NCBI GenBank assembly: GCA_041661165.1
Contig: JBAZVA010000001.1
Location: 9,101 to 73,100, forward strand
Length of the DNA: 64,000 nucleotides
Origin: Candidatus Woesearchaeota archaeon
GTDB lineage: Archaea > Nanobdellota > Nanobdellia > Woesearchaeales > JBAZVA01
Reading direction: 5' to 3'
In this document: positions 1,865-29,356 of the stretch, in pieces
Position numbering within the stretch: the first letter of the stretch is position 1
Layout of the letters: every line of letters starts with the position of its first letter
Made by a program: the position numbers and the translations under genes
The notes under the pieces: generated by a model
Database searches by the model: none
What the model saw: the letters and a program-made list of their open reading frames with translations, nothing else
What the model was told of the DNA's origin: nothing

Positions 1865-2006
1865 AAAGTCTTCACCAGCACGCAGACTCCTCGCAGAGGT
1901 AGCCAAGCAACGCAGCTATGTATGCAGTATTATTAATCCAGTTCCAATAGGAGTTTCTATTTAGTACTATTATTAGCACTACATGTGAAGGCTGGTAAGA
2001 AGACTT
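1865..2006 (+). repeat. intergenic element, subfamily A, carrying hairpin module I (1889-1920)
   Basis: AAAGTCTTCACCAGCACGCAGACT[module]TATGCAGT..CCAGTTCCAATAGGA..ATTATTAGCACTACATGTGAAGGCTGGTAAGAAGACTT. Confidence 0.9.
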
Positions 2007-2062
2007 AAGACGATGTCTTAATATTCGTTACATATATAAATTAACAATTGGTTTACTTTAAT

Positions 2063-2860
2063 ATGTCATATCAATCAGAAGTAAGAACGAGAATAATAAG
2101 GCTTTTAGCAAAGCATGATAATTTGAAAGCTAAGCAAATGTATAGAATGCTAAATTTACCAGTAACGTATCAAGCTGTTTTTAAAATGATAAAAACGATG
2201 GTTGATGAAAAGACACTTGACCAAAACAAATTATCATATTCATTAAATGACGATTTCGTAAAAGATACAGTTTCGTTTGTGGAAGAATTAAAAGTAAATG
2301 AAAAAGAAAAATATTCTTCTGTATTATCAAAAGTAAGTGATGGAAAAGAAAAAGTTGTATTAAATTTCAAAAGACAAATTGATTTGTTAGAATTTTTACT
2401 GGGGTTTGTAGAATATCAAACTAGTGCAGCACCAAATGATTATTGCTTGTTTCATGTAAATTGTTTGTTTGGAATATTTTCATTTTCTCCAAAATTAACT
2501 GAGAAACTTCAAAACATTCTTTCAAAATCAAGAGTGTATATTATAGTAAAGCAAGATACAAGATGGAATGATGCGATAATACAACTTTGGAAAAGACTTA
2601 CAGTAAACATAAAATCAGGAGTAAATTTTGGTGGAAAAGATGTTTTAGTGTATAAGAATATTGTTTGTAAAGTAATTTACGATGAAACTAACGCACAAGA
2701 ATTGTGCGAAGTAGCAAGAAAAGTTCAGCAACTTTCAAATATTAATATAATGGAAATGATTTACAATTTGTATGAGAATAATATTAATATCTCATTGGAA
2801 ATTTCAAGCGACCCTAAATTTGCAAGCACATTAAAGGATAGGTTTATGGGAGAGTTTTAG
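2063..2860 (+). CDS. putative winged-helix transcriptional regulator
   Basis: N-terminal RTRIIRLLAKHDNLKAKQMYRMLNLPVTYQAVFKMIKTMVDEKTL resembles a wHTH. The ORF track starts at TTG 2048; the first ATG is at 2063. Confidence 0.5.
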   Translation: MSYQSEVRTRIIRLLAKHDNLKAKQMYRMLNLPVTYQAVFKMIKTMVDEKTLDQNKLSYSLNDDFVKDTVSFVEELKVNEKEKYSSVLSKVSDGKEKVVLNFKRQIDLLEFLLGFVEYQTSAAPNDYCLFHVNCLFGIFSFSPKLTEKLQNILSKSRVYIIVKQDTRWNDAIIQLWKRLTVNIKSGVNFGGKDVLVYKNIVCKVIYDETNAQELCEVARKVQQLSNINIMEMIYNLYENNINISLEISSDPKFASTLKDRFMGEF

Positions 2861-2882
2861 TTCTGATAAAATTATCAACTTT

Positions 2883-3005
2883 AAGTTCTTTACTGGCACA
2901 CAGATTTGTATAGATAATGATATTTCTAACCTAAAATAATTGTTTTTATAAAAGGATTTTTTATATTACAATAATTAATTTTATAATGTCCAAGTATTAG
3001 AAGAT
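2883..3005 (+). repeat. decayed copy of the intergenic element (5' half recognisable)
   Basis: AAGTTCTTTACTGGCACACAGATTTGTATAG at the 5' end. The 3' arm is reduced to ATGTCCAAGTATTAGAAG. Confidence 0.45.
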
Positions 3006-3247
3006 TAAAATGGAAAATATTGTTTAACTATTATTTTAATTTCGTTATAAAATTCTTCTCCGTCTCCTGTAGGTCCACCTAGAAAACTACTATTAGTTGC
3101 AGCATATAAACATCTTTGATCTAAAAGCAAATTGTATATTTTTTCAGAAATGTTGTGTCCGTTTAAACTAAAAATATTTTGAGTAGTTATTCCTTTATTT
3201 GTTTTAGATGTGCTGATAATTCTTTCTAATACCCTCTTAATTTCCAT
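3005..3247 (-). CDS. hypothetical small protein (80 aa)
   Basis: ORF with TATATAAAA-like box about 25 nt upstream on the gene strand. Sits next to the cysteine desulfurase gene. Confidence 0.4.
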   Translation of the reverse strand: MEIKRVLERIISTSKTNKGITTQNIFSLNGHNISEKIYNLLLDQRCLYAATNSSFLGGPTGDGEEFYNEIKIIVKQYFPF

Positions 3248-3316
3248 AGTGTATAAAATAAAAAATCCTTTTATATAGTTTTCGCTCTACTATGAAATAC
3301 TTCTATTTTTGCATCA

Positions 3317-4435
3317 TTACAATAAGTCTTTATAATATTTCTTAAACTTTTCCAAGAAGAAATCAACTTCTTTTTTCGTATTGTATTTAGAAAGCGAGAT
3401 TCTCATACTGCATCTTGCATCTTTATCAGATAATCCTAAAGCAGTTAAAACGTGAGATGGTTTTTTGTTTGACGCAGAACATGCAGAACCGACAGAAACG
3501 AATATGTTGTCTTGCTCTAGATGATGTAACATTACTTCTCCTTCAACGTTCTTCATTAATACATTTAGTATGTTGCAAGCACTCGTTTTGTCATCGACAA
3601 AACCATTTATAGAAATTCCATTTATTTTAATTAATTCAGACATCAAATATTTCTTCAATTTCAGAATATTATCATTTTCAAAATTTTGTTTTATTGCAGT
3701 TCCAAATCCGACAATACCTATCACATTTTGTGTTCCGCTTCTAAGATTTTGCTGTTGATGTCCGCCAAAGAATATTGGTTTTAACTCAATATTTTTTTTA
3801 ATAATAAGTGCGCCAATTCCTTTTGGTCCGTGAATTTTATGTGCAGAAATTGTTATTAAATCCATATTTTGGAATATTTTAGAATCTATTTTCATAAAAG
3901 ATTGTACTGCATCCGTATGAAATATTATTTTAGAATTCTTCAATTTCACAATTTTGCACAATTTTTCAATATCTTGAATCGTCCCAATTTCGTTATTTAC
4001 GTGCATTATAGTTACTAAGAACGTATCTTTTGTAATTGCTTTATCTAATTCATTTTCATCGACAAATCCGTTTTTATCAACATCTAAATATGTAACAGAG
4101 TATCCTTTGCTTTCAAGCTCTTTTATTGGCTCCAAAACAGATGGATGCTCTATTTTCGTAGTGATTATGTGTTTTCCTAAGTGTTTCAAACCGAAAATTA
4201 CTTGATTGTTGCTTTCAGTTCCGCAACTTGTAAAAATTATCTTTTTATCTTCTCCAAAAATCTTTTTAAAATCAGAAACGATTGACTCAATACTTTTTTG
4301 TACAAAAAGTCCAAGCGAATGAAGCGATGATGGATTTCCGTATTCAGTAAAACAATATTTTTCAATCTCCTTTACAACTTCGTCATCAACTTTCGTGGTT
4401 GCAGCATTGTCAAGATATATTATCTCCCTATTCAT
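3317..4435 (-). CDS. cysteine desulfurase (NifS/IscS-type, class V aminotransferase)
   Basis: PLP-lysine context ISAHKIHGPKGIGAL and active-site cysteine loop VSVGSACSA. Length is 372 aa. Confidence 0.9.
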   Translation of the reverse strand: MNREIIYLDNAATTKVDDEVVKEIEKYCFTEYGNPSSLHSLGLFVQKSIESIVSDFKKIFGEDKKIIFTSCGTESNNQVIFGLKHLGKHIITTKIEHPSVLEPIKELESKGYSVTYLDVDKNGFVDENELDKAITKDTFLVTIMHVNNEIGTIQDIEKLCKIVKLKNSKIIFHTDAVQSFMKIDSKIFQNMDLITISAHKIHGPKGIGALIIKKNIELKPIFFGGHQQQNLRSGTQNVIGIVGFGTAIKQNFENDNILKLKKYLMSELIKINGISINGFVDDKTSACNILNVLMKNVEGEVMLHHLEQDNIFVSVGSACSASNKKPSHVLTALGLSDKDARCSMRISLSKYNTKKEVDFFLEKFKKYYKDLL

Positions 4436-4455
4436 GTGTTTAATAGTCCTATATT

Positions 4456-4470
4456 CGTTTAAAAACGTTG
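4456..4470 (-). promoter_or_regulatory. TATA/BRE-like promoter module CGTTTAAAAACGTTG upstream of the cysteine desulfurase gene
   Basis: Centred about 26 nt upstream of ATG 4435. Identical 15-mer to 17322-17336. Confidence 0.5.
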
Positions 4471-4485
4471 TTGTGGCGTTTCAAG

Positions 4486-4593
4486 AAGTCTCAACCAGCA
4501 AACAGACTCGTATGCATTTGTTTTATCCAGTTCCAATCGGAACGTCTAATTTACACAATTATTAGCACTATATGTAAAGGCTGGTGGAGACTT
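4486..4593 (+). repeat. intergenic element, subfamily A
   Basis: AAGTCTCAACCAGCAAACAGACTCGTATGCA..CCAGTTCCAATCGGAAC..ACACAATTATTAGCACTATATGTAAAGGCTGGTGGAGACTT. Confidence 0.9.
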
Positions 4594-4668
4594 TTTACTT
4601 TTTATTAGTATTGGAAGATATAACACACTCTAAAAAGCTTTAAAAATCAGTACTACTTAAGTCCTTAC

Positions 4669-5079
4669 ATGATCAAGCAGTTCATAAGAATTACTTTAAT
4701 AAAAGAAGTAAAGCCGGGTATAGATAACATAAATTCTGATTTGCAGTGGTTTTGTAATACACTAGGTATGTTTAACCTTCGTGACAAGGAAAAAAGTTGT
4801 TATAGATTGTTTGTAGAACTTCTAAAAGCTGCAAGACTTGAAAAAGAAATGTCGAGTGACGATTTGGCAGACAGACTAAATCTTACAAGAGCGACAGTAA
4901 TTCATCATTTAAATTCTTTAATTGCGTCAGGGCTTGTAATTGCAAAAGAGGACAGATATTATTTAAGAGTAAATAATCTAAAAGAGCTTGTAGATTTCGT
5001 AGAAAAAGATGTGATCTCTGTTTTTAAGGATTTAAAAGATGTTGCAGAGAATATTGATGATAAATTAGAGTTGGACTAG
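4669..5079 (+). CDS. ArsR-like winged-helix transcriptional regulator
   Basis: LADRLNLTRATVIHHLNSLIASGLV is a typical ArsR/SmtB recognition helix. Confidence 0.6.
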   Translation: MIKQFIRITLIKEVKPGIDNINSDLQWFCNTLGMFNLRDKEKSCYRLFVELLKAARLEKEMSSDDLADRLNLTRATVIHHLNSLIASGLVIAKEDRYYLRVNNLKELVDFVEKDVISVFKDLKDVAENIDDKLELD

Positions 5080-5134
5080 ACTTTTTTCTTGACAAATTGT
5101 TAATAGAAATTTATCAATTTTTTATAATGATTTT

Positions 5135-5395
5135 TTATTGTTTATACAGCGTAAAAGTAAAACCAATTTTATTTACAACTTCTGCATCCACTAATTTTGC
5201 AACTTCGTATGGGAATTGTTTTTTATCAATATTGTGTTCGTCAATTGCCCCGCCAAGAATTTTCACTTTGATAAGTTTTTTCGCTTTTAATTGTTTTTTA
5301 ATTTCTTCAATTATAAGAGGATCCATTCCTTTCTTCCCAATCCACACTGTTGGTTTTGTTACATGCGACATTGCAACTAAATTTTCTTCTGTCAT
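5135..5395 (-). CDS. YhbY/CRM-domain RNA-binding protein
   Basis: VWIGKKGMDPLIIEEIKKQLKAKKLIKVKIL...VVNKIGFTFTLYK matches the CRS1/YhbY pattern. Length is 86 aa. Confidence 0.7.
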   Translation of the reverse strand: MTEENLVAMSHVTKPTVWIGKKGMDPLIIEEIKKQLKAKKLIKVKILGGAIDEHNIDKKQFPYEVAKLVDAEVVNKIGFTFTLYKQ

Positions 5396-5454
5396 AACAT
5401 ATAGAAATAAACTTTCCTTTTTAAATCTTTAGATGAGTTGAATTTCCTACTTTT

Positions 5455-5573
5455 ACTTATGTCCTGCCAGCACGCAAAACAGTATTCAGTGTCTATATTA
5501 CCTCTTTAGAACGAACAAATTTGATTGGTACTATTATTAGCAATGTAAGCAAGGCTGGCAAGGACATTAAAGT
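5455..5573 (+). repeat. intergenic element, subfamily B
   Basis: Arms ATGTCCTGCCAGC / GCTGGCAAGGACAT. Core GGTACTATTATTAGCAATGTAAGCAAGG. Confidence 0.9.
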
Positions 5574-5625
5574 CCTAACGACATCTTTTTAAACATTCAT
5601 TTGACATAAGAATATAGGGGTATCA

Positions 5626-6573
5626 ATGAATATAGGTCAATTTAAACTAAAAAATAGGATTTCTTTAGCACCCATGGCAGAAGTTACAGATATTGCGTTT
5701 AGAGAACTTTGCATAAAAGAAGGCTGCGGTTTTACAATAACAGAAATGGTGAATGCGCACGCAATAATTCATGCAGACGAAAACACGTTACGAATGACTA
5801 AGACTTCTAAATTAGAATCTCCTAGATGTATTCAAATTTTCGGTGGCGATCATGATGCAGTAATTCAAGCCGCAAAAATAGTTGAAAAAGATTGTGATAT
5901 TCTAAATTTCAATATGGGTTGCCCCGTAGATAAAGTCACATCAATAAATGCGGGAAGCGCACTTCTAAAAGATTTAGTATCAACAAAAAAACTTTTAACA
6001 GACTTAAAGAGCGAGATAAAAATTCCGCTCACAATTAAAACAAGAATAGGTTACGATGACGAGATTAATATTCCACAAGTTGCAAAAATGTGTGAAGAAG
6101 TTGGTATTGATTGTTTAATGATTCATGGCAGAACAAAAGCACAAGGATATTTTGGAAATGCTGATTGGAAAAGTATAGAAACTGCAAAACAAAATTATTC
6201 AGGGCCAGTTATTGGAAACGGAGATGTAATTGATGAAGTTTCTGCAAAAAACATGTTATCTTTTTGTGATGGTGCAATGATTGGTAGAGCAGCAATAGGA
6301 AATCCATTTATTTTTTCAAGAGTAACTCACTTTTTAGAAACTGGGAATTTTTTACCAAAAGAATCTGTTCACGACAGAATTTCTATGTACTACAAATATG
6401 TAAAATTGGCAGAGAAATATAGAATTGGAACTTTAGTAAGACTACGTCAGCAAGCAGTCTGGTTTTGCAAAGGTTTTGTCGGCTCAAAAGATATGCGAAT
6501 GAAAATTTCTTCTGCAAAGACTTATGACGATATTAAAAAAGCGATGGATGATTTCTTATCAGAGAATACTTAG
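5626..6573 (+). CDS. dus: tRNA-dihydrouridine synthase (Dus family)
   Basis: LAPMAEVTDIAFR, NMGCPV (catalytic Cys context) and IHGRT are Dus hallmarks. Confidence 0.9.
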   Translation: MNIGQFKLKNRISLAPMAEVTDIAFRELCIKEGCGFTITEMVNAHAIIHADENTLRMTKTSKLESPRCIQIFGGDHDAVIQAAKIVEKDCDILNFNMGCPVDKVTSINAGSALLKDLVSTKKLLTDLKSEIKIPLTIKTRIGYDDEINIPQVAKMCEEVGIDCLMIHGRTKAQGYFGNADWKSIETAKQNYSGPVIGNGDVIDEVSAKNMLSFCDGAMIGRAAIGNPFIFSRVTHFLETGNFLPKESVHDRISMYYKYVKLAEKYRIGTLVRLRQQAVWFCKGFVGSKDMRMKISSAKTYDDIKKAMDDFLSENT

Positions 6574-6589
6574 GTCAAAACTAAACTAT

Positions 6590-6701
6590 ATGTTTTTTAC
6601 CGGCAAGCAAAACAGTATGCAGTAATATCATTGGTTTTTTAGAAGTAAGTAAATTATTTTGGTACTATTATTGGCAATGTAAGCAAGGCCGGTAAAAACA
6701 T
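6590..6701 (+). repeat. intergenic element, subfamily B
   Basis: ATGTTTTTTACCGGCAAGCAAAACAGTATGCAGT...GGTACTATTATTGGCAATGTAAGCAAGGCCGGTAAAAACAT. Confidence 0.9.
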
Positions 6702-6711
6702 CGTACTAGAA

Positions 6712-7002
6712 TTATTCTTTTTTCTTTTTCATTTCTTGAACGGTCTTAACAAAACATTCTATTTGTTTTTCAGACAATCCTTCGTATTTTATATAATTTA
6801 TTTTTATAGAACGTAAAAACATATTTTGCATGTAGAATTCTTCAGGAATATCAAACATTGCTTTCATTGCAGGGTCTTTAATTTCAGTAGAAAGTTGTGC
6901 TTTTTGACAATCGTAGCATATAGGATATTGACTTCGTCCGGAAATTAAAACCATGTTTTTCTTACATTGGTTACATCTTTGCTTGTATGATACTTTTACC
7001 AT
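6712..7002 (-). CDS. zinc-ribbon protein, function unknown
   Basis: CNQC...x15...CYDC four-cysteine ribbon at the N-terminus. Length is 96 aa. Confidence 0.5.
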   Translation of the reverse strand: MVKVSYKQRCNQCKKNMVLISGRSQYPICYDCQKAQLSTEIKDPAMKAMFDIPEEFYMQNMFLRSIKINYIKYEGLSEKQIECFVKTVQEMKKKKE

Positions 7003-7037
7003 GTATTAGAAGACGAGTTGTTAGTTTATAAAATTTC

Positions 7038-8060: not shown

Positions 8061-8131
8061 TATAGAAACATATTAGAAGATATAATATATAAAAGTTACT
8101 ATTATTTAGTAGTTCTTAAATAAATTATAAT

Positions 8132-8267
8132 CTGCTCTGTACAAAGTCTTTTTACCGGCCTTGCTTGTGTTGCTAATAATTGTACTAATTTAATTACATA
8201 TTCTAAAGAGCTCTTTAATTACTGCATACTGTTTTGCTTGCCGGTAGAGACATTTTGGACAGAGCTG
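8132..8267 (-). repeat. intergenic element, subfamily B, full-length arms
   Basis: Plus strand reads CTGCTCTGTACAAAGTCTTTTTACCGGCC...GCCGGTAGAGACATTTTGGACAGAGCTG, about 27-bp imperfect arms. Confidence 0.9.
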
Positions 8268-8311
8268 ATATAATCCAAGAATTTATATACAATTGATTAT
8301 TGATATTTTTT

Positions 8312-9268: not shown

Positions 9269-9291
9269 AATTCTTTGCTAAATTTATTATA

Positions 9292-9407
9292 AGAAATGTT
9301 TTTACCAGCAAGCAGATTTGTATGCAGATTTATGATGTGGTTCCAATCGGCACTTCTTATTAACACAATTATTAGCACCATATGTAAAGGCTGGTTGAAA
9401 CATTTCT
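9292..9407 (+). repeat. intergenic element, subfamily A
   Basis: Arms AGAAATGTTTTTACCAGC / GCTGGTTGAAACATTTCT. Core ACACAATTATTAGCACCATATGTAAAGG. Confidence 0.9.
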
Positions 9408-9431
9408 AATAGTGTCGTTTAGAATTTATAA

Positions 9432-10529: not shown

Positions 10530-10582
10530 AATAGTAAATACAAAATAGTGATTTATAAATGTGGTTATTATATTATTGAGGG

Positions 10583-10750
10583 TGTGTCAAAGTCTTCATA
10601 TCAGCACGCAGAACAGTATAGAAAACATCAGTTTTCTATTAGAAGTTCCTTAGAACTTCTTTATGCAGTATATTAGTCCAGTTTCTACAGTACTTCTAAT
10701 TTACACAATTATTAGTACTATATGTGAAGGCTGGTGAGAAGACTTTGAAA
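10583..10750 (+). repeat. intergenic element, subfamily A, carrying module II (10619-10665)
   Basis: GTGTGTCAAAGTCTTCATATCAGCACGCAGAACAGTAT[module]GCAGT...ATTATTAGTACTATATGTGAAGGCTGGTGAGAAGACTTTGA. Confidence 0.9.
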
Positions 10751-10783
10751 AGAACTTATGGTGATGTAATGTCAAACGTTTTT

Positions 10784-11542: not shown

Positions 11543-11618
11543 TGTGTTTTTTGAGAATTAATATTTATTTTTTAAATCTTTCGCTATTCTTAAGTGATGT
11601 CAAAATTTACTTTGTTTT

Positions 11619-11733
11619 AAAAGTCTTCATACCAGCAAGCAGATTTGTATGCAGATTAATAATCCAGTTTCTACCAGTACTTCTAATTTACACAATTATT
11701 AGTACTATATGTGAAGGCTGGTAAGAAGACTTT
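11619..11733 (+). repeat. intergenic element, subfamily A
   Basis: AAAAGTCTTCATACCAGCAAGCAGATTTGTATGCAG...ATTATTAGTACTATATGTGAAGGCTGGTAAGAAGACTTT. Confidence 0.9.
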
Positions 11734-11815
11734 GATTGTGTTTTGGAGATATTTATGACAGTGAAATTTATAAACAAGATAATCTTAGAAAACATGTGAA
11801 TAAAGGGGGTAAAAT

Positions 11816-12115: not shown

Positions 12116-12116
12116 G

Positions 12117-12274
12117 GTGTGTATCAAACGTCATACCAGCACGCAGAACCTCGCAGAGGTAGCCAAGCAACGCGGCTATAGTAGCAGATTACAAGTCCGG
12201 TTCCAATAGGAACTTCTATTTAATACAATTATTAGTACTACATGTCAAGGCTGGTATGAAAAATTGAAACACAC
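12117..12274 (+). repeat. intergenic element, subfamily A, carrying module I (12149-12180)
   Basis: Starts 2 nt after the stop at 12115. GTGTGTATCAAACGTCATACCAGCACGCAGAA[module]GTAGCAG...GGCTGGTATGAAAAATTGAAACACAC. Confidence 0.85.
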
Positions 12275-12298
12275 AAAATAAATAATAACGTTGATAGC

Positions 12299-13144: not shown

Positions 13145-13189
13145 TTTTTATATAAAATATAATAACAAAAATATGACCTATAAAATAAA

Positions 13190-17300: not shown

Positions 17301-17321
17301 ATTATATTGATTATCTATTTC

Positions 17322-18403: not shown

Positions 18404-19320
18404 TTGAACTAAACCGTATTAATGTTACTTTTGTATTTTTCTAGTGGTATTTTGTATCCTATTCCTTGATGTAATCTTTCTTCATTATAAAACTTTAGGA
18501 ACGTATCTAAAGTATCTTCACCGTCTTTAAATTCAAGTTTATACGTTCCAAACCAACGTTCAATTTTTCCATTGGTTTGAGGATGATGAATTCGTCCTAA
18601 AATATGTTGTATTTCATTATCATTACAAAATTTTGTAAATGAACCAATTTCGCCTCTTGTAGGCGTAAATTGTGTTCCTTGATCAGTCAAAATACGTTCT
18701 GGTTTTCCATGTTTTAAAATTGCTATTTTGAATGCCAAAATAGTGTTTTCTGCAGTCATATTTTCAAAATATTCTGCGTGAACAATAAATCTGCTATTAT
18801 CATCTATAAATGCAATAAGATATTTTCCTGTGAATGGACATTCTGTCCAATCAGTGTGCCAAAGCATATTTGGCTTTGGCCATTCATATCTAACAAATTT
18901 AATTTGCGAAGGACGAGTTCTTTTATTCATTTTTAAACCATGTTTTCTGTATATTTTTTGGATTTGTCTTTCAGACACATCAAAACCTTCTGTTTTGAGT
19001 TTTCTCCACATTTTATTTACAGCACTATTTCTTAGTTTCCACGTTAGTAAAATTTTATTTTCAAACGTAACAATAATTTGTATTTGTTTTGCACCGGGTT
19101 TTTTATTTTCTAATGCAAAATTACCGTATTTTTTCTTTAATTTAATCCATCTATAAATAGTTTGCTTTGGAATTTTTCTAATTTGTGCAATGTGTTCTAT
19201 TGGTGTAATACCTAAATTTACGTGTTTTAAGACTCGTTCTTTGAATTTTTTTGTGTATCCCATTGTATCCTCCGGATACAAAATATAACACAACTAGAAT
19301 AAATTAGTCACCGTAACATA
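18404..19320 (-). mobile_element. insertion sequence carrying the transposase; ends only tentatively placed
   Basis: Possible imperfect terminal inverted repeat AACCGTATTAATGTTAC (about 18412-18428) versus GTAACATAATTATG (about 19310-19323), matching about 10 of 12. No clear target-site duplication seen. Confidence 0.4.
18409..19293 (-). CDS. DDE transposase (rve integrase core, IS481-like single-ORF layout)
   Basis: N-terminal HTH, then the D..D..E context HTDWT, LTDQGTQF and TNGKIERWF, followed by LHQGIGYKIP. Confidence 0.85.
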   Translation of the reverse strand: MCYILYPEDTMGYTKKFKERVLKHVNLGITPIEHIAQIRKIPKQTIYRWIKLKKKYGNFALENKKPGAKQIQIIVTFENKILLTWKLRNSAVNKMWRKLKTEGFDVSERQIQKIYRKHGLKMNKRTRPSQIKFVRYEWPKPNMLWHTDWTECPFTGKYLIAFIDDNSRFIVHAEYFENMTAENTILAFKIAILKHGKPERILTDQGTQFTPTRGEIGSFTKFCNDNEIQHILGRIHHPQTNGKIERWFGTYKLEFKDGEDTLDTFLKFYNEERLHQGIGYKIPLEKYKSNINTV

Positions 19321-19503
19321 ATTATGATTCAGAACAATACCCTCTCACCTTATACTATTTTCAAGTAGTTTCCTTTTAGTTACAAAAATTTGCATTTTTT
19401 ACTGAATTTTATCCCTATATTGCTTAAACTTATCCATAATTTCTCGTCAGATATAAGAATGTGTAATTATTATATCAAATAAGTGTACTCACATCGTGAA
19501 AAT

Positions 19504-19821
19504 ATGGTTTCGTTAGTAGATATTTGGATAAAAGCGGCGGTAGAAAGAAGGATTCTAATAGTTGACTACTTTGACAAGGAAACAAAAACTGCGTTTTTTC
19601 AGGAAGAAATTGAACCACATTACATTGGATTTTCTCAAAATGGTGGTAAAAGGAGTCTTTTTGGTGCATTAAGAAATAAAGGATTAATTGTATTGGAAAC
19701 TAACTCTATACTTCGTTATACTTTGTCTAATAATACTTTTACTCCTGTTGAACATGTGAAGATGAGACGAACAGAAATGATTTATGATAAAAAAGTCTTA
19801 AAATACAAGAAAATCGCATAA
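19504..19821 (+). CDS. small WYL-domain-like protein
   Basis: RRILIVDYFDKE...EIEPHYIGF...LFGAL...NSILRYTL follows the WYL-domain beta pattern weakly. ATG at 19504. Confidence 0.4.
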   Translation: MVSLVDIWIKAAVERRILIVDYFDKETKTAFFQEEIEPHYIGFSQNGGKRSLFGALRNKGLIVLETNSILRYTLSNNTFTPVEHVKMRRTEMIYDKKVLKYKKIA

Positions 19822-19829
19822 TTTTCAAG

Positions 19830-19885
19830 GAACGTACTCTTCTTAGATTGTTAGTGTTGTTTTTCGTTGTTGAAAGAGTACGTTC
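19830..19885 (+). terminator. perfect 12-bp stem (GAACGTACTCTT / AAGAGTACGTTC) with a 32-nt loop, followed by a T-run
   Basis: Seen directly, 9 nt after the stop at 19821. TTTTATT follows the 3' arm. Confidence 0.35.
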
Positions 19886-19922
19886 TTTTATTCATACTTT
19901 TTTTGCTATTTTTTCACAAAGT

Positions 19923-19949
19923 GGGATAAATTAATGTATTTTTTTATCC
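19923..19949. promoter_or_regulatory. palindromic operator candidate GGGATAA-N14-TTATCC
   Basis: Inverted half-sites at 19923-19929 and 19944-19949, about 50 nt upstream of the 19998 start. Same architecture as 23080-23107. Confidence 0.4.
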
Positions 19950-19997
19950 TATATAATCCAAAGTTTAATAAGAACGCTTATTTTAAGTATATTAATA

Positions 19998-20300
19998 ATG
20001 GGGACTATCTTAAGCTCAAAAACAACAAAAGAAGGAAAAGTTATCCATGAAGTCATGGTTGATTACGAGGAATCTTTGCAATTAAGGGGTAATATTCAAA
20101 ATGTTCACATTTTTTCTGAAGATGTTGCTGATATAAAAACAAATTTATCAGGTAGGGGAAAAAACGAAGCGACAAAATATTTTTTAATTCCGAGAGAATT
20201 AAGAAAAGATGTTCAATTAAAAGATAAAGTTACTTGTCAAAAAATTCAGACCGATTCTAAAGTTGTTTTCATTTACGTAGTAGATAAATTGAGGTTTTAG
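19998..20300 (+). CDS. small protein with possible AbrB/SpoVT-like C-terminal segment
   Basis: KYFLIPRELRKDVQLKDKVTCQKI resembles the looped-hinge-helix pattern. First gene of a tightly coupled trio. Confidence 0.4.
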   Translation: MGTILSSKTTKEGKVIHEVMVDYEESLQLRGNIQNVHIFSEDVADIKTNLSGRGKNEATKYFLIPRELRKDVQLKDKVTCQKIQTDSKVVFIYVVDKLRF

Positions 20301-20301
20301 T

Positions 20302-20973
20302 GTGAAAAGAGAGTCAACAGGAATACCAAAGGTTGATGAGATGTTAGAGGGTGGTTTTCCAGCTTCAAGCATAATTGGAATTTCAGGTCCTCCTGGTGTC
20401 GGTAAATCAATTTTTGCATTACACTTTTTACTTGAAGGTGCAAGAAATAATCAAAAGTGCGTATATGTTAATCTTGAAGAACCATTATCGAATATTAATA
20501 ATTTGATTAATGAATTTAAGTTTGGCAAAGAATTTACTAAATTTGTAAAAAGCGGAAAAATTGTGATAAAATGTTATAATTATTCAGAATTCGAAAATAT
20601 TTATTCCGATTTCTTTTTAAAAGTTAATGAAGAGAAAGTTCAAAGACTTGTAATTGATAGTTTTAATGTTTTTTTTACTTCTACTTTTTCTTCAAAAGAA
20701 ATTCCGACAGAGATAAATATAAATAAAATGATAAATAAAGCAATCTCAATATTGAGAAAAGATGATTTAACTACGGTATTAATACTTGAAAAACATAAAG
20801 ATAATTACAATGTTCCGTATCTGGTTGACGGTATGATTGAATTTGATTTTTTAGATCTAGGAATGATTGAAAGAAGACTATTTGTTTCTAAAATGCGTTG
20901 GACTAATCAATATAAGGAAAGTGTGCCTTTCGAGATAACTGAAAAAGGAATTGTTCTTAATGATGAAAAATGA
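20302..20973 (+). CDS. KaiC-like / RecA-superfamily ATPase (single domain)
   Basis: GIPKVDEMLEGGFPASSIIGISGPPGVGKS (Walker A) and RLVIDSF (Walker B). GTG start 1 nt after the upstream stop. Confidence 0.8.
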   Translation: MKRESTGIPKVDEMLEGGFPASSIIGISGPPGVGKSIFALHFLLEGARNNQKCVYVNLEEPLSNINNLINEFKFGKEFTKFVKSGKIVIKCYNYSEFENIYSDFFLKVNEEKVQRLVIDSFNVFFTSTFSSKEIPTEININKMINKAISILRKDDLTTVLILEKHKDNYNVPYLVDGMIEFDFLDLGMIERRLFVSKMRWTNQYKESVPFEITEKGIVLNDEK

Positions 20974-22085
20974 GTACTATTGAAGATATTTCTAGTTTTG
21001 TATTTACTAGACTATTTTTTCCTAAAAAAATAATTATTGATACCCCTGGAATAATAATAAATAAGCTTATGCAAAAATATGGTACTTCTCAAAGTCAGCA
21101 CAGGGCACTGTTTTTTTTTGAAGATATTATGTCAAATCTCCAAAAGAAAAGTATACAAAAATTGGGCGAAAGGGAAGCGTCTGAACTTTGGTATGAAGTC
21201 GGAAAAGATGTTGCATATCGTTATTTTTTCTTAAGTAATACGAAAAAATTACCTTCTTTTTTACAAAAGACGACAATTGAATACGCTTTAGGGGGATTTT
21301 CTGCAGCAGGACAAACTTTTGCTAAAAATGTTGTTTTTGATTCTTCTAAAAAAAGTTTGATCGCGAAGGGCGATAATAATATTGTTTGCAGGAAAACAAA
21401 ACTTGGTGATTTTTCTTCTGGGCTTGTAAGTGGAGTTGTTTCTTTTTTTACTGGTGAAAATATTGAAGCAAAAAATATGTGTCGTTGTCCAAATTGCTTA
21501 ATTGTTGCAAACGCAGAAATTCCAACAAGATACCTTCCAAATTTGGACAAAATAAAAGTAGATTTACAAAATTATAATTTGAATTTCCCCTATGTGTTGA
21601 TTAATAAAAAAGAGGGACATTCTTTTAAGGATTTGATAAAGTTTAGAAAGATTATTGTAGATAAAAATTCAAAACTTTCCTATGGTAATCATGCTTTAAT
21701 AATAGGAGAAGTAGGGTTATTTTATATTATTGCAGACAAATTCATAGAAAAAACATCAGTAAGAGAGTTCGAATTTGTTGTTATTTCCTCATCTGAAAAA
21801 ATTGCAAAAGGTATTTTAAAAAAACACCATTCTGAGCAAGAAAAAATAAATGAAACATTTAAAGTACTTTCGGCGCTGGGGTTTGGTACTTTTAGTTACA
21901 AAAAAGAAAAAAAATTATTTAAAGTGACGAGTACGTGGACTCCTTACTGTAATAATAAATTTTATTTTCAATATCTCATATTATGTGGATTTATGAACAC
22001 TATTTACAATACTAAATTTTGTGTTCAATCAATGCGTTTTGAAAAGAAAGAATCAAAGTTACACCTTTCATTTTTTCCACATTAA
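20970..22085 (+). CDS. hypothetical protein with V4R-like (4-vinyl reductase type) small-molecule-binding segment
   Basis: CRKTKLGDFSSGLVSGVVSFFTGENIEAKNMCRCPNCLIV resembles the V4R C..G...G....E..C...C pattern. Overlaps the upstream stop by 4 nt (ATGA). Confidence 0.5.
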   Translation: MSTIEDISSFVFTRLFFPKKIIIDTPGIIINKLMQKYGTSQSQHRALFFFEDIMSNLQKKSIQKLGEREASELWYEVGKDVAYRYFFLSNTKKLPSFLQKTTIEYALGGFSAAGQTFAKNVVFDSSKKSLIAKGDNNIVCRKTKLGDFSSGLVSGVVSFFTGENIEAKNMCRCPNCLIVANAEIPTRYLPNLDKIKVDLQNYNLNFPYVLINKKEGHSFKDLIKFRKIIVDKNSKLSYGNHALIIGEVGLFYIIADKFIEKTSVREFEFVVISSSEKIAKGILKKHHSEQEKINETFKVLSALGFGTFSYKKEKKLFKVTSTWTPYCNNKFYFQYLILCGFMNTIYNTKFCVQSMRFEKKESKLHLSFFPH

Positions 22086-22101
22086 TTGCTCTATTTCATA
22101 A

Positions 22102-22992: not shown

Positions 22993-23079
22993 TCCATGTT
23001 CCCCCCTTTATCTTAAAATGATAAAAATCTTCTAGTATTTACATCTTTATCTTAATTTAGTAGTAATACTATCTAAAAT

Positions 23080-23107
23080 GGGATAAATTTAATATAAAAA
23101 TTATCCC
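23080..23107. promoter_or_regulatory. palindromic operator candidate GGGATAA-N14-TTATCCC
   Basis: Lies in the divergent spacer between the UbiA (22992) and GGPP synthase (23197) starts. Same half-sites and 14-nt spacing as 19923-19949. Confidence 0.4.
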
Positions 23108-23196
23108 GAAATGTAAATAAAACGTCATTTAGTCCGATTTTGAACAGAAACCAATATTAATAAGTAAATTTAGAACAAGTAATATAAGGGGAATAA

Positions 23197-24231: not shown

Positions 24232-24271
24232 TTTCTTTCAATGAATTTTTATTTAAAATTTTAAAATTTAG

Positions 24272-24841
24272 TTATGTGTTCACAACTTTTTTAAACAAAT
24301 TATTTAATTCTTGATTTTCATATATGAATTGTCTTGCTAATTTTTTTGACTTTTCTGACATTCTATCAAACATATATTTAATTTTGAAATAAGTCATATT
24401 TGATTCACTTTCGTGTTTTTCAAAATAATATTCTAAATTTGATTGAAAAAAAGAAAGACTATCGGCATCCATTAATATGTTAGTTTCTTCATCTCCTCCA
24501 ACTTCATGATTTAAAACAAGATGTTTCACTTTTTTAATGAACTTTTCATCAAATTCATACTTAAATAGTAATTCTGATATTATTTTAGAACTTCTTTTTG
24601 AGTGTTCTTCTTTAATTTTGTCATAATCTTTTATTTTTTCAGCTTCAGTTTTGTTACTTTTTTCTCTTCTACCCCTTTCAATATCGTGAGAAAGTGCAGC
24701 AATTTGTAGTGCCTCATCAGCATATGGTTTTAATTTTAATAGCCATTCAAGTGTGGTTTTTGAATGTGAAATATCAGTTTTTGAAAATGAGTTAGCAATA
24801 ATTTCTTCAATTTCTTTTTTTAGTAATTCTATTTTCTCCAT
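24272..24841 (-). CDS. HD-domain phosphohydrolase
   Basis: AALSHDIERG (HD dyad) and LNHEVGGD. Confidence 0.7.
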   Translation of the reverse strand: MEKIELLKKEIEEIIANSFSKTDISHSKTTLEWLLKLKPYADEALQIAALSHDIERGRREKSNKTEAEKIKDYDKIKEEHSKRSSKIISELLFKYEFDEKFIKKVKHLVLNHEVGGDEETNILMDADSLSFFQSNLEYYFEKHESESNMTYFKIKYMFDRMSEKSKKLARQFIYENQELNNLFKKVVNT

Positions 24842-24926
24842 GAATTTACTGATTTAATGGAATTTAATAATATTCTGTTTATGTATGTTAGACCTGCTTT
24901 TTTATAAAAAATTGACGTTATTTAAT

Positions 24927-25068
24927 AAGTCTTCACCAGCTTTGCTTACATTGCTAATAATAGTGCCAATTTAATCATATATTCTAAAGAACAAACTTAA
25001 TTACTGCATACTGTTACCTCGTAAGAGGTAGCCAAGTGCAACGCGGCTATGCGTGCTGGTAAAGACTT
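24927..25068 (-). repeat. intergenic element, subfamily B, carrying module I in inverted orientation relative to the host (25017-25050)
   Basis: Plus strand reads AAGTCTTCACCAGCTTTGCTTACATTGCTAATAATAGTGCC...ACTGCATACTGTTA[CCTCGTAAGAGGTAGCCAAGTGCAACGCGGCTAT]GCGTGCTGGTAAAGACTT. Confidence 0.9.
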
Positions 25069-25090
25069 CAAAAACAGGGTAAAAATGTCT

Positions 25091-25218
25091 GCTCTGTAGA
25101 AAACATACACGGCCTTGCATATGTTGCAATAATAGTTACTAATTTTACTTGCTGTATCTAAAGAACAAATTTTAATTGCTTATTACTTATGCTTGCCGGT
25201 TGAACGTTTCTACAGAGC
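25091..25218 (-). repeat. intergenic element, subfamily B (diverged), 22 nt from the previous copy
   Basis: GCTCTGTAGAAAACATACACGGCCTTGCATATGTTGCAATAATAG...GCTTGCCGGTTGAACGTTTCTACAGAGC. Confidence 0.8.
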
Positions 25219-25350
25219 TAAAATGTCGTTAAATTTATAAACCACTACGCGCCCGTAATTACTACAATACTGGGGGTTTTGGGTAATAAACAAATACACA
25301 CTCTAAGCCACTAAAAACTTATACTAATATTTAGAAAACGGTGATGAAAT

Positions 25351-26970
25351 ATGTCAAACAAGATGAAACAATCAATAATGCCAGATGAGGCTCAAAGAAC
25401 AATGGGAAAAGATGCACAACGAAATAATATTCTAGCCGGGAAATTGGTTGCAGAAACAGTAAGAACAACTCTTGGTCCAAAAGGAATGGACAAAATGCTT
25501 GTTGATAGTTTAGGTGACGTTGTTGTAACAAATGATGGTGTAACAATTCTTAGAGAAATGCAAATTGAACATCCTGCTGCAAAAATGATTGTAGAAATTG
25601 CAAAAACACAGGAAGCAGAAGTAGGAGACGGAACAACTACTGCAGTAATAATTGCTGGTGAACTTCTAAAAAACGCAGAAGCACTTTTAGATTCAAATAT
25701 TCATCCTTCTGTAATCACAAAAGGTTACAAAATTGCAACAGACAAAGCATTAGAAATTGTAAGAAGCTTTGCAACAAAAATTAATATTAATGATAGAATT
25801 GTTTTAAAAAATATTGTTGAAACAGCAATTACTGGTAAAGGTCCTGAAGATAAAAAAAATCAACTTGCTGAATTAATCGTAACAGCAGTAAAAGCAATTG
25901 AACAAAACGGAAAAGTTGACAAAGAAGATATCAAAATCCAAAAAGTAATTGGTGGCGGAGTAGACGATTCTTATCTTGTTGAAGGAATAGTTATTGACAA
26001 AGATAAAGTGCATGAATCAATGCCGACAGTTATTGCAAATCCAAAAATTGCACTGCTGAATTCTCCGCTTGAAATAAGAGAAACAGAAATAGATGCGAAA
26101 ATATCCATTACTGATCCAATGCAAATGCAGGCATTTATTGACCAAGAAGATATGATGATAAAAAGAATTGTTGACAAGGTAAAAAAGAGCGGAGCAAATG
26201 TAGTTTTCTGTCAGAAAGGTGTTGATGACTTAGCAGCACACTATCTTGCAAATGAATGTATTTTAGTTTCAAGAAGAATTAAGAAAAGCGATATGGAAAG
26301 TTTATCAAGAGCAACAGGTGCAAAAATTATTAATTCACTTGATGATTTAAAACCAGATTGTTTAGGTTTCGCAGGAAAAGTTGAAGAAAGAAAAGTTGGC
26401 GAAGAAAAAATGATTTTTGTAGAAAAATGTAAAAATCCAAAAACTGTTACACTTGTATTAAAAGGCGGAACAGAACATATTGTTGATGAAGTTAAACGTG
26501 CTTGTGAAGATGCAATTGGTGATTTGAAAGCGTCCCTTGAAACAGGTTTTATTGTTGCAGGCGGAGGAAGTGCAGAATGTGAAATTTCAAGAAAACTAAG
26601 AGCATTTGCAGAATCCCTTGGCGGACGAGAGCAATTAGCAGTTAAAGCATACGCGGATGCACTTGAAGTGATTCCAAAAACGTTAGCGGAGAATGCAGGG
26701 TTTGATCCAATTGATATTTTAACGGAATTAAAAAGCGCTCACAATGCAGGAAAAATTCACGCAGGTGTCAATGCATATACAGGAAAAATTGTTGACATGA
26801 TGCAAGAGGGAGTAATAGAACCTTTAAAGGTAAAAACTCAGGCAATTCAATCCGCTGGAGAAGTATCTGTTATGATTCTAAGAATCGATGACGTAATTTT
26901 GGCATCAGGACTTAGTAGAAATGCGCACGGACCAGGAATGCCTAGTCCCGATGATATGGGCGGAATGTAA
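25351..26970 (+). CDS. ths: thermosome subunit (group II chaperonin)
   Basis: [18 protein letters not shown] and [11 protein letters not shown], plus a C-terminal GGM tail. GGTGAT Shine-Dalgarno-like sequence upstream. Confidence 0.95.
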
Positions 26971-27037
26971 TTATTTTATTATTTTTTTGGTTTAATACTC
27001 ATCAGCTTGCTATGAGAATATGATTTTTCAGACATTT

Positions 27038-27538
27038 TTATTTTATTTGCTGTCCTAATTTCTTTTGAAAAGTTTTAGAAAAAGGTAAGTAAAAAAATTT
27101 AGGTAATTTATTTTTATGTCTAGATGTAAATGTTAGAAATTGCAATCTATGTTCCCAGATATTGATCATACAACCAAAATCCCATAAAGGAGGGACTAAA
27201 ATAGTTACATTTTTACTTACTCTTCTAAGTTCATCAAAAAATTTTTTAGGATTATCAATGTGTTCTAATGTATGAGAACAAATTGTGTTTTTAAATTGTT
27301 TATCTTTGAATGGCAATTTATATATATTTTTTACCAATACAAATTTCGAAACATCTCTTTTAACAATATCTGCATTGACTCCTTCACACGAAGTATTACC
27401 ACAACAAATATTTAAATCGAATTTTTCAGATTCTAAATATCTCTTTTTCATAAACTTATAATCAAGCCAATTAAGGAAGAATCCTAAAATAACAATACCT
27501 GTCAAAACTAATATTACTTTTATAACCATATTAAACAA
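27038..27538 (-). CDS. class I SAM-dependent methyltransferase with N-terminal TM anchor
   Basis: ICSHTLEHIDNPKKFFDELRRVSK matches the Methyltransf_11-type post-II region. Confidence 0.6.
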   Translation of the reverse strand: MFNMVIKVILVLTGIVILGFFLNWLDYKFMKKRYLESEKFDLNICCGNTSCEGVNADIVKRDVSKFVLVKNIYKLPFKDKQFKNTICSHTLEHIDNPKKFFDELRRVSKNVTILVPPLWDFGCMINIWEHRLQFLTFTSRHKNKLPKFFYLPFSKTFQKKLGQQIK

Positions 27539-27578
27539 TCAATCTGAACATATTAATAAGTCTTTCTACATATGGTGA

Positions 27579-27627
27579 GTAATAAGTATTCACACATATC
27601 GGTTTGATTTATTACTTATATGGAGTG
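27579..27627. repeat. short fragment related to the outer arms of the 37696-37968 composite
   Basis: GTAATAAGTATTCACACATATCGG...TTATTAC..GGAGTG versus GTAATAAGTGTTCACACGTACCGG...GGAGTGAACACTTATTAC. Confidence 0.5.
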
Positions 27628-27635
27628 TTGTTATC

Positions 27636-28814
27636 TTAAAATTGTTTTCTATTAATTAATTCAGAATATATTTCTTCCCACTCATTTATTATATATTTAA
27701 TGTCGTGTTTTTTAATTGTTTCTAGAGTGTTTTTTCTTAGTAATTCATATGTTTTTTTATTTCTGAGTAATTTTAATACAGAATTTGAAAATTCTTTTTT
27801 GTCTTTGTCTTTTACCAGAAATCCATTTACGCCGTTTTCAATAAGTTCAACTGTGGCCTTTTCTGCAACGCACACACATACTATTCCGTTTGCTTGTGCC
27901 TCAAGCATTGTTATTCCTTGAGTTTCAGTTTTTGAAGCAGTAACAAATATATCGCATGCGCCAAAAATTCCTGATTTTACCAAATCACTATGATCTATTT
28001 TTCCAAGAAGAATAACGTTATTTGTTATATTTAATTTTTTAATTTTTTCTTTTACCTCTTTAAACTGAGGTCCTCCTCCAACAATTAAAAGTTTAGCAGA
28101 ATTTTCTTCTTGAAAGACTTTTTTCATACATTCAAGAAGATAAACGATGTTTTTTTCGTGTGCTATTCTTCCTACGTACAATAGTAATTTTCCTTTTTTA
28201 TTATATTTTGCTTTAATTGTTTTAGATTTAGAATTATCAAATATTGAAGCATCAATTCCGTTTGATACTACTCTTATTTCTGGTTTTACATTTTGTGCTT
28301 CTATTTCTTTTTTTGTCACTTCTGATGGGCACGTTATTATGTCGCATTTGTTATAAAAAAAGTTAGAATATTTCCATGCTAATTTTTGAACGAAACTATT
28401 TGTTATTTTTATGTGCTTTAGATATTCAGGATCTGCGAAAAAAGTGTGAAAAGTTCCGACTATAGGTAGATTAAGGTACTTTGATAAAATTATTGCATGC
28501 ATTCCTACAGTCATTGGTACTTGAAAATGAATTAATTCTATTTTATTTTTTTTTAAATATGCCACCAATTCAAAATTAATAGGAGATGCAATTTTAAAAT
28601 CTTCATAAAAGAATGCAGGTATGGAGGATATTCTTTTTACTTTTATATTTTTATAAGAAAATTCTTTATCAATTTCGTATGATGGTGCAACAATGTATAC
28701 TTTATGTCCTTTATCTGCAAGACCTTTTGCAAGACTTAAAGTGGCAGTCACAACTCCATTTATTTGAGGTAAGAAGACATCAGTAAAAATTGCAATTCTC
28801 ATTTTTTTGGTCAT
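27636..28814 (-). CDS. GT4-family (GT-B fold) glycosyltransferase
   Basis: MRIAIFTDVFLPQINGV N-terminus, GRIAHEKN and an E-x7-E region (TETQGITMLEAQ). Start chosen at ATG 28814, downstream of a TATA-like box. Confidence 0.85.
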   Translation of the reverse strand: MTKKMRIAIFTDVFLPQINGVVTATLSLAKGLADKGHKVYIVAPSYEIDKEFSYKNIKVKRISSIPAFFYEDFKIASPINFELVAYLKKNKIELIHFQVPMTVGMHAIILSKYLNLPIVGTFHTFFADPEYLKHIKITNSFVQKLAWKYSNFFYNKCDIITCPSEVTKKEIEAQNVKPEIRVVSNGIDASIFDNSKSKTIKAKYNKKGKLLLYVGRIAHEKNIVYLLECMKKVFQEENSAKLLIVGGGPQFKEVKEKIKKLNITNNVILLGKIDHSDLVKSGIFGACDIFVTASKTETQGITMLEAQANGIVCVCVAEKATVELIENGVNGFLVKDKDKKEFSNSVLKLLRNKKTYELLRKNTLETIKKHDIKYIINEWEEIYSELINRKQF

Positions 28815-28902
28815 TATAAAAATATAACAATACACGTATATAAAAATATATTGTCATCTAATCATTAAGAAAGTAGAAAAGAAATAACACGTAATATTAA
28901 AC

Positions 28903-29061
28903 TCACTTGCTAGACTTTTCCGTTCTCTGCACTTTTTCTCTGATTCCTTTCATTATGTCATCCATTTTTTTAACGTCGACATTATCTGTAAGGTTTTGTG
29001 CTTTTGGCTTTGCCTTAACTTGTGCGCTTTTCAGCATTTCTTCTGTAAATTTATTGCTCAT
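28903..29061 (-). CDS. small basic protein (52 aa), not in the ORF track
   Basis: Own translation: MSNKFTEEMLKSAQVKAKPKAQNLTDNVDVKKMDDIMKGIREKVQRTEKSSK. TTTAAATA box about 25 nt upstream. Confidence 0.35.
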   Translation of the reverse strand: MSNKFTEEMLKSAQVKAKPKAQNLTDNVDVKKMDDIMKGIREKVQRTEKSSK

Positions 29062-29165
29062 AACATTAATGATGTAGTATTAGTATTTAAAGATTTCTAC
29101 ACAGTATCACATATTACTATACTAATATTTTCTACTGCCCCGTTGTACTATTATTTTTAGCAAAG

Positions 29166-29356
29166 GCTCTGTCAAAAAAGTTATCACCAGCACGCAAAAC
29201 CTCACAGAGGTAAATAAGCGTAGCGCATTTATCTCAAAGAGGTAGCCAAGTGCAACGCGACTATAGTAAATCGGTATTATAGTTCCAATAGTCGCTCTTA
29301 ATTGGCACAATTATTAGCACTACATGTCAGGCTTGTGGATAAATTTTTGACAGAGC
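29166..29356 (+). repeat. intergenic element, subfamily A, with two tandem module I units (29200-29232, 29233-29266)
   Basis: GCTCTGTCAAAAAAGTTATCACCAGCACGCAAAA[2 modules]TAAATCGG..AGTTCCAATAG..ACAATTATTAGCACTACATGTCAGGCTTGTGGATAAATTTTTGACAGAGC. Confidence 0.85.

Follow-up and report, generated by a model that had tools for sequence, protein, structure and literature searches.

A two-hairpin module of about 32 nucleotides nested in a palindromic intergenic repeat of a woesearchaeal genome

Module I, its host repeat and its insertion sites

We analyzed a 64,000-nt stretch of contig JBAZVA010000001.1 (positions 9,101 to 73,100; assembly GCA_041661165.1) from a Candidatus Woesearchaeota archaeon, hereafter the window, and followed in it a short hairpin sequence, module I, which lies inside copies of a larger palindromic repeat, the host repeat. 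Module I is located exclusively within host copies, in two classes of orientation and site and with clean junctions in the direct class; its genealogy does not follow that of its hosts, its sequence is more conserved than theirs, and its stems carry compensatory changes. With moderate confidence, we interpret module I as a nested, non-autonomous mini-element, similar to the repetitive extragenic palindromic (REP) units, that was repeatedly and precisely inserted into one loop of the host repeat.

When JGI metagenomes were scanned for the conserved host-repeat pattern, 38 loci were returned (contigs are designated by L and a number), and the host repeat was found in 19 of them, all from sample Ga0172379. 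Since contig L136 is 99.7% identical to window 40481-43823, the Ga0172379 contigs are regarded as further parts of the same genome, from which ~147 kb (the window and the JGI loci) were analyzed in total. The host repeat is an intergenic palindrome of 105-135 nt, present in 26 copies in the window (~5% of the sequence) and in ~36 more copies on the JGI contigs, for a total of ~60. It has a closing stem (...TACCrGC / GCyGGTA...), with the motif GCA[A/C]GCAGAnnnGTATGCAG on its 5' side and the block ACAATTATTAGCA...AAGGCyGGT on its 3' side. The interior exists in at least three versions, subfamily A (GTTCCAATAGGAAC), subfamily B (GTTCTTTAGAATA) and subfamily C (CATTCTACCATTAC).

Module I is a non-coding sequence of 30-34 nt that forms two hairpins, and nine units of it are known. 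An initial reading of the window from its letters alone (the sequence-only reading) had listed five units, whose sequences we confirmed at their positions, with covariance-model boundaries within 2 nt. The covariance model was built from the nine known units and run across all positions of the window and 18 JGI loci. Exactly nine strong matches were obtained, at 35.8 to 56.8 bits, and the next best position reached 16.7 bits; with nine matches at or above 35.8 bits against this noise ceiling, the units are not chance matches. Sequence inside and outside the hosts was searched in this way and with a 9-mer scan, and 9/9 units were inside a host copy, in both orientations. Each host copy carries 0, 1 or 2 units. 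As the sequence-only reading had proposed, the module is optional: only 8 of ~60 hosts carry it, and module-less copies read straight through, as GCAAACAGACTCGTATGCA at 4483 and as GCAGATTTGTATGCAG at 11619.

The five units of the window all lie on the + strand. Two single direct units are found at 1889-1919 (47.7 bits; GCA loop, second loop without TG, C.A mismatch in stem 2) and at 12149-12179 (50.8 bits; both stems perfect). The unit at 25017-25050 (56.8 bits; GTAA loop) is inverted relative to its host, which lies on the - strand, as had been noticed from the letters; it is also present in the ENA contig L080, and it is 100% identical to the inverted unit of L113. At 29200-29231, a variant unit, Ib (35.8 bits; stem 2 TAAAT/ATTTA, inner stem GCG/CGC), is the first of a tandem pair, followed at 29232-29264 by a second unit (51.3 bits; a U.G pair in stem 1, TCTC/GAGG, and a C.A mismatch in stem 2). 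The two units are too diverged from each other for the pair to be a recent duplication. The word GAGGTAGCCAAG is exact at 1896, 12156, 25025 and 29239 and occurs with three mismatches at 29207. Four units were found beyond the window, at L113:490-523(-), L115:598-631(+), L117:460-492(+) and L125:394-427(-).

The minimum-free-energy fold of each isolated unit is the pair of hairpins already described from the sequence, CCTC-loop-GAGG followed by TAGCC-loop-GGCTA. This fold is weak (-4 to -5.5 kcal/mol computed for DNA; z-scores between -0.7 and -2.4), and the tandem pair at 29200 and 29232 can alternatively refold into one long composite hairpin. When the host segment 12127-12262 was folded, both module hairpins formed independently in a multiloop closed by the host arms. 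Because the module folds apart from the host closing stem, its presence, absence or duplication would leave the host structure undisturbed.

Stem covariation was tested on the structure ((((....))))(((((..(((...)))))))). Over the nine units, 96.7% of the cells showed standard pairing and three cells were unpaired. Four pairs were changed on both sides: three in the 29200 unit, where TAGCC/GGCTA is replaced by TAAAT/ATTTA as first noticed in the window, and one more that the larger sample revealed in L125, where CCTC/GAGG becomes CTTC/GAAG. One wobble pair is replaced by C-G or U-A in two units. Shuffled sequences matched the observed pairing values in 1-2/500 trials, and slid registers paired at 26-54%. 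The covariation signal of the module stems is real, resting on two units.

We tabulated the insertion sites and flanks of all the carriers. All inserts fall within a 9-nt host segment, GCA^GACT^CGTA^TGC (carets mark the sites), which makes up the loop of H1, a small hairpin (GCA/TGC) predicted by RNAalifold; the three pairs of H1 are invariant and thus bring no covariation support. Six direct units occupy five hosts and three inverted units occupy three loci, and each orientation class has one fixed site, the two sites being 4 nt apart. The direct class uses the middle site. Its hosts are three subfamily A copies of the window, at 1863-2004 (+; GCAGACT^TGTATGCAG), at 12124-12263 (+; GCAGAA^TAGTAGCAG) and at 29178-29344 (+; the tandem pair, with a degenerate 3' half of H1), together with copies in L117 and L125. 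Direct insertion is the exact addition of CCTC...GGCTA, without target duplication and with flanks as in the nearest module-less copies. For example, the L117 junction GCAAACAGACT^CGTATGCAG corresponds to GCAAACAGACTCGTATGCAC in the module-less copy L126:2882, and the 12124 junction corresponds to GCAGAATAGTATGCAG in the module-less copy L118:2477.

The hosts of the inverted class are the copy at 24927-25071 (-; subfamily B interior, GCACGCA^...^(T)AACAGTATGCAG) and copies in L113 and L115. There, the module lies 4 nt upstream of the direct site, directly after GCAcGCA, and one host base is changed to T. A shift of about 5 nt towards the arm had been reported for the 25017 unit; the shift exists, towards the 5' arm, and measures 4 nt. 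The complete downstream host sequence is retained at the inverted junctions, as ACTCGTATGCA on subfamily A backbones and as AACAGTATGCAG on the subfamily B backbone. A local inversion between the GCA/TGC arms predicts GCA-TAC-ATAGCC...GAGG-AGTC-TGCAG, and the sequence seen is GCA-TAGCC...GAGG-TACTCGTATGCAG. Local inversion was therefore rejected, because an arm-to-arm flip would not keep the complete downstream host sequence ACTCGTATGCAG. In the orientation of the module, direct units are followed on the 3' side by TGTATGC or CGTATGC, and inverted units by TGCGTGC or TGCGCGC. These words are similar and lie on opposite strands of the quasi-palindromic H1 region; the 12124 host (TAGTAGC) and the tandem pair deviate from them, and the words come from two site classes only.

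A second insert, module II, was found in the same segment. Module II is an unrelated two-hairpin sequence of ~43 nt (TAGAAAAC..GTTTTCTA and AGAAGTTC..GAACTTCT), located 4 nt beyond the direct module I site on the 3' side and flanked by TA on both sides, which could represent a target duplication. It is carried by a subfamily B host at 1102-1262 (+; CAGTA^TATTCAG), by the host at 10589-10743 (+; CAGTA^TATGCAG) and by L131:4090-4250(-). Since module II uses the 9-nt segment too, at a third site, this segment attracts or tolerates insertions.

To compare modules with hosts, the modules were excised and a neighbor-joining tree was computed from 53 backbones of ~100 nt each. Mean pairwise identity among the eight carriers was 0.875 for the modules vs 0.647 for the backbones. 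The identical inverted module of the 24927 host (subfamily B) and of L113 (subfamily A) sits on backbones that share an identity of 0.61. The nearest backbone relatives of the carriers were mostly module-less copies, and carriers were never sisters on the tree. Fitch parsimony required 8 changes for 8 carriers, compared to a mean of 7.81 with random labels and to 7-8 over 30 column bootstraps. Moreover, the GTAA-loop variant, otherwise a feature of the inverted class, is present in the direct L125 unit (0.94 identity). Taken together, the tree, the identities and the mixed L125 variant show that the carriers are not a clade and that neither orientation class is a simple lineage. The sequence-only reading had preferred independent insertion or local inversion over simple inheritance; inheritance is refuted as it supposed and repeated insertion is favored, and its local inversion did not stand.

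Possible modes of origin and spread of module I

According to the reading that we favor, a trans-acting activity, reading the hairpins of the cassette and a short target, would have placed it again and again in host copies that already existed. The 3' end of the module (sense CCTC...GGCTA) would abut a TGYRYGC-like word, whose occurrence on both strands of H1 would generate the two classes of site and orientation. Because similar words do lie on opposite H1 strands, one strand-specific target rule could give both classes. The lack of target duplication, the end hairpins and a strand-specific target would together resemble single-strand transposition of the HUH/Y1, REP or IS200/IS605 type. The module may have spread by true insertion or by conversion between copies. 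In a stronger and rather doubtful version of the insertion reading, module I may be an active hyperparasite and the smallest known archaeal mobile DNA, moved single-stranded by a structure-specific enzyme (HUH-like or other) that targets the host loop on the TGYRYGC strand.

We also looked at the strands on which the modules lie. At 4/4 window loci (1889, 12149, 25017 and 29200/29232), the module sense strand is the + genomic strand regardless of host orientation, an arrangement with a chance probability of ~1 in 8. This same-strand facing, whatever the host orientation, fits a replication-strand-specific mechanism. Local GC skew, taken as a guide to replication, was -0.07 to -0.27 on the short JGI contigs, where it is dominated by gene orientation, vs +0.05 in the window. 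A dependence of the module sense strand on the direction of the neighboring genes was rejected: it is true of the four window loci and fails in L113 and L117.

Several observations weigh against repeated insertion. Neither the 9-mer scan nor the covariance model detected module I outside the host repeat in the ~147 kb, and no candidate mobilizing gene for it was found there. Among 749 six-frame open reading frames (ORFs) of this sequence, phmmer gave no match to an IS200-type TnpA/RAYT, an approximate IS608 TnpA serving as the query. The sole transposase found is encoded by a 294-aa ORF at window 18409-19293 (-), with an rve integrase-core domain (E=1.3e-18) and N-terminal helix-turn-helix domains, and is IS481/IS3-like; it was rejected as mobilizer of the host repeat, its ends being unrelated to the host arms. 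The similarity of the target words (TGTATGC vs TGCGTGC) was noticed after the fact, and the tandem pair falls outside the target rule. There are only two classes of site and orientation, and the tree of ~100-nt sequences is poorly resolved and its sequences may recombine; for these two reasons, the number of truly independent events is something that we infer. The GCAcGCA flank variant is present in 6/8 carriers vs 10/43 module-free copies, which hints at some linkage, by descent or co-conversion. In addition, the two-sided stem changes are confined to two units, and the comparison is within a single genome, in which no orthologous site can reveal presence/absence polymorphism.

The main rival to repeated insertion is gene conversion, to which we give a tentative place, well behind. 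Two or three ancestral insertions (direct, inverted, tandem) would have been passed among hosts by homologous recombination or gene conversion, with the shared host sequence flanking the module serving as homology, and the module itself would be immobile. The host family is indeed a mosaic, in which A, B and C interiors are variously combined with closing stems (CCAGC or CCGGC) and arm variants, and the host arms seem to evolve in concert; the enrichment of GCAcGCA beside the module and the restriction to two site classes point in the same direction. However, after the identical module the 24927 host reads AACAGTATGCAG (subfamily B) and L113 reads ACTCGTATGCAT (subfamily A). Because the flanking host sequence is backbone-specific on both sides, every conversion tract would have to stop exactly at the module border, where the homology on the 3' side extends over just ~8-10 nt, and L117 and L125 are without the GCAcGCA variant.

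An explanation that we consider unlikely, and that is compatible with the others, is that the host is a functional structured nucleic acid (an RNA of untranslated regions, a DNA cruciform or a protein-binding site) and module I a selected optional expansion segment. Compensatory changes occur both in the module stems and in the host closing stem: in a 53-copy alignment, one column pair of the latter is A-U in 27 copies and G-C in 15, and another shows five pair types and is paired in 51/53 copies. All elements are intergenic, a GNRA-like GUAA loop caps one hairpin, a U.G pair is conserved in the inner stem, and the module folds independently of its host, like boxB of the BOX elements. Against such a role, a search of Rfam 15 found nothing, either at gathering thresholds or at E<=1. 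Host copies occupy all kinds of intergenic space, in either orientation relative to the adjacent genes, and the module sense strand of L113 is antisense to both neighbors. Since UG-type and CA-type mismatches are about equally common in the host stem, no single transcribed strand is indicated. Finally, a structural role leaves unexplained the identical module on unrelated backbones in two orientations.

Repeated de novo formation of the module, by replication slippage or template switching on the host hairpin, appears very improbable. The word CGCAGA does occur both in the host just upstream (CACGCAGACT) and within the module (CCTCGCAGAGG), and the segment tolerates or attracts several hairpin inserts (modules I and II). 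Nevertheless, such a process would not yield 30-34-nt sequences that are 88-100% identical across backbones and orientations, and the remainder of the module has no recognizable source in the host. Simple inheritance of one family by descent, or a misassembled inverted case, is refuted, the inverted arrangement being present at three loci in two assemblies and the carriers forming no clade; the 25017 case is not an assembly artifact, because L080 is identical there and inverted copies also exist at L113 and L115.

Host copies, neighboring genes and source genome

The arms of the host repeat are 12-35 nt long. Outside TACCrGC/GCyGGTA, they are very different between copies and complementary within a copy, with an average complementarity of 6.6 to their own partner vs 3.7 to foreign ones, the own partner being better than ~92% of the foreign partners. 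Such a pattern is unusual for transposase-recognized terminal repeats, and the matching within copies suggests structural selection or arm-to-arm repair. Outside the arms, 50 copies showed no consistent direct repeat, although the fuzzy limit of the arms could hide short ones. Neither an autonomous partner nor a host copy with a large cargo was found in the ~147 kb, where no host halves lie more than ~170 nt apart. The repeat is small, non-coding, multi-copy and bounded by inverted arms, like a MITE (miniature inverted-repeat transposable element); because it shows no consistent target duplication and no autonomous partner, it is a MITE-like palindromic repeat and not a proven MITE. A conserved AAG is present on each strand just inside the closing stem (GC-AAG-CA ... 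-AAG-GC; for example at window 11640-11650 and 11708-11716), and together the two might make a symmetric, purine-rich internal loop (A.G, A.A, G.A). Purine-rich internal loops of this kind are often protein-binding sites.

Besides the carriers of modules I and II, the window contains six module-less copies of subfamily A, at 4483-4593 (+), 9293-9403 (+; arms AGAAATGTTT/AAACATTTCT), 11619-11730 (+), 42340-42451 (-; the nearest backbone relative of several carriers), 53026-53136 (-) and 60063-60173 (+). Module-less copies of subfamily B are located at 5455-5567 (+), 6588-6701 (+), 8146-8256 (-; arms reaching ~35 nt), 30646-30758 (+), 39733-39843 (+) and 40741-40852 (+; also in L136), one of subfamily C (CATTCTACCATTAC interior) at 44472-44582 (-), and a further module-less copy at 62246-62358 (+). 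Diverged module-less copies lie at 25103-25211 (-), adjoining the 24927 host, at 32595-32704 (+) and at 37769-37876 (+). The degenerate copy at 2881-2990 (+) is recognizable only by its 5' arm and the GCACACAGA motif, and the 3' half alone is conserved in the partial copy at 62702-62815 (-). The strongly diverged copy at 48175-48305 (-) has a closing stem of ~24 bp (GGCTTTGTCCGAAA..TTTTCGGACAAAGCC) and retains only the GCAAGCAGA and CAAGGCTG motifs; it was missed by the initial hidden Markov model searches. On the JGI contigs, L123:1399-1463 (-) is a deleted host copy, in which the 5' half is joined directly to the 3' arm.

Next to the arm of the 42340-42451 copy, we observed a patch of six substitutions between the window (42444-42482) and L136 (1964-2002). 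All six are to A in L136, they are clustered in 39 nt, and they are the sole internal differences over 3.3 kb. This patch could be an assembly or sequencing artifact or a locally hypermutated patch. Elsewhere in the window, a KaiC/RecA-like ATPase ORF (Pfam PF06745, E=1.7e-36) is located at 20302-20973 (+), within a group of ORFs (19483-22085) that lack family matches, next to the rve transposase.

The window has a G+C content of 30%, and its genes include those of a thermosome, a CopA-type ATPase and a NifS-like desulfurase. The thermosome shares ~62-65% identity with its best named relatives, which are Woesearchaeota or Nanoarchaeota proteins from metagenome-assembled genomes, and only 80% and 76% identity with the closest database proteins. 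Given thermosome matches this distant, the source is an uncultivated DPANN archaeon without a close sequenced relative. The 13-kb contig L080 is 100% identical to window 24481-36970. Both the host repeat and module I are absent from L081 and L082, the contigs of the two nearest relatives (thermosome identity of 80% and 76%), and the host repeat is also absent from IMG/VR (pattern search) and from all other JGI matches.

Searches beyond the genome and comparison with known systems

Module I was not found outside this lineage. An exact-pattern scan of 185,579 species genomes returned 79 single matches, which are chance, coding-like matches in unrelated bacteria without CCTC or GGCTA flanks; 19 matches in IMG/VR were all due to chance, and BLAST against phage and plasmid collections gave no match. 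ARAGORN found no tRNA in the window. The word GCAGAGGTAGCCAAGTG presumably resembles the 5' part of a class II tRNA.

DPANN genomes are very small, and yet ~5% of the window consists of one palindromic repeat family, in which smaller hairpin cassettes are lodged in turn. Should the cassette be mobile, the range of REP-like or single-strand-type transposition would come to include Archaea, and a minimal substrate of ~32 nt would be at hand for studying structure-guided DNA insertion. If it spreads by conversion only, it would still help to trace recombination among the dispersed repeats of an uncultivated lineage. The host repeat, for its part, is a possible system for studying how palindromes stay complementary, by selection or by arm-to-arm repair.

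Small repeats nested in other repeats are already known, and MITE examples include Correia, ERIC with internal inserts and Nezha. The host repeat resembles MITEs in being small, non-coding, intergenic and high-copy, with inverted arms, and differs from them in arms that vary between copies and co-vary within a copy, in the lack of target duplication and in the lack of a matching transposase. Compared to nested MITEs, module I is only ~32 nt long and has no terminal inverted repeats. A published census places a Woesearchaea genome among those with the highest MITE densities in archaea (PMC11602168).

The BOX elements of Streptococcus are modular intergenic repeats with the organization boxA-boxB(n)-boxC (Croucher et al., 2011, PMC3049150). 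As with boxB, the internal module can be absent, single or tandem, and it folds alone while the outer stem stays undisturbed. However, the sequences are unrelated; in BOX elements, it is the number of tandem boxB copies that varies, within one orientation, whereas module I is found in either orientation, at two fixed sites, with a genealogy uncoupled from that of its host.

For palindrome-associated elements derived from IS200/IS605, a Y1 HUH transposase mediates movement in single-stranded form. Module I resembles these non-autonomous derivatives in having a hairpin at each end, clean junctions and no terminal inverted repeats, its ends CCTC... and ...GGCTA not being inverted repeats of each other. 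Its insertion may likewise take place beside a short specific word on a given strand, and a quasi-palindromic target would then give two classes. By contrast, module I is much shorter than any described member, no cognate tnpA or tnpB with the same ends was found in the 147 kb, and its target word is deduced from just two site classes.

To our knowledge, REP/RAYT systems have been described in bacteria, and we know of no such element nested in another repeat in archaea. Module I differs from the GTAG-REP and REPIN-RAYT systems in that no RAYT was found, that its host is a high-copy repeat and that the organism is archaeal. With ~9 copies in 147 kb, it is not itself a high-copy dispersed repeat, and it carries an additional mini-hairpin (CCTC/GAGG). 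GTAG stands at the 5' foot of the main hairpin in 8/9 units (GGTAGCC...GGCTA; variant Ib has GTAA), although it is internal to the unit, with three of its bases in the stem. The nearest known parallel comes from Anabaena, Thermomicrobium and Halothiobacillus, where larger palindromes contain nested GTAG-tagged REP units or dimers (Di Nocera et al., 2013, PMC3733652). Module I likewise is a short extragenic hairpin unit of the 20-40 nt class (hairpin 2 of ~23 nt, whole unit of 30-34 nt), a palindromic unit present as a single copy or as a dimer, without target duplication and in the middle of a palindrome, in which stem pairing outweighs sequence.

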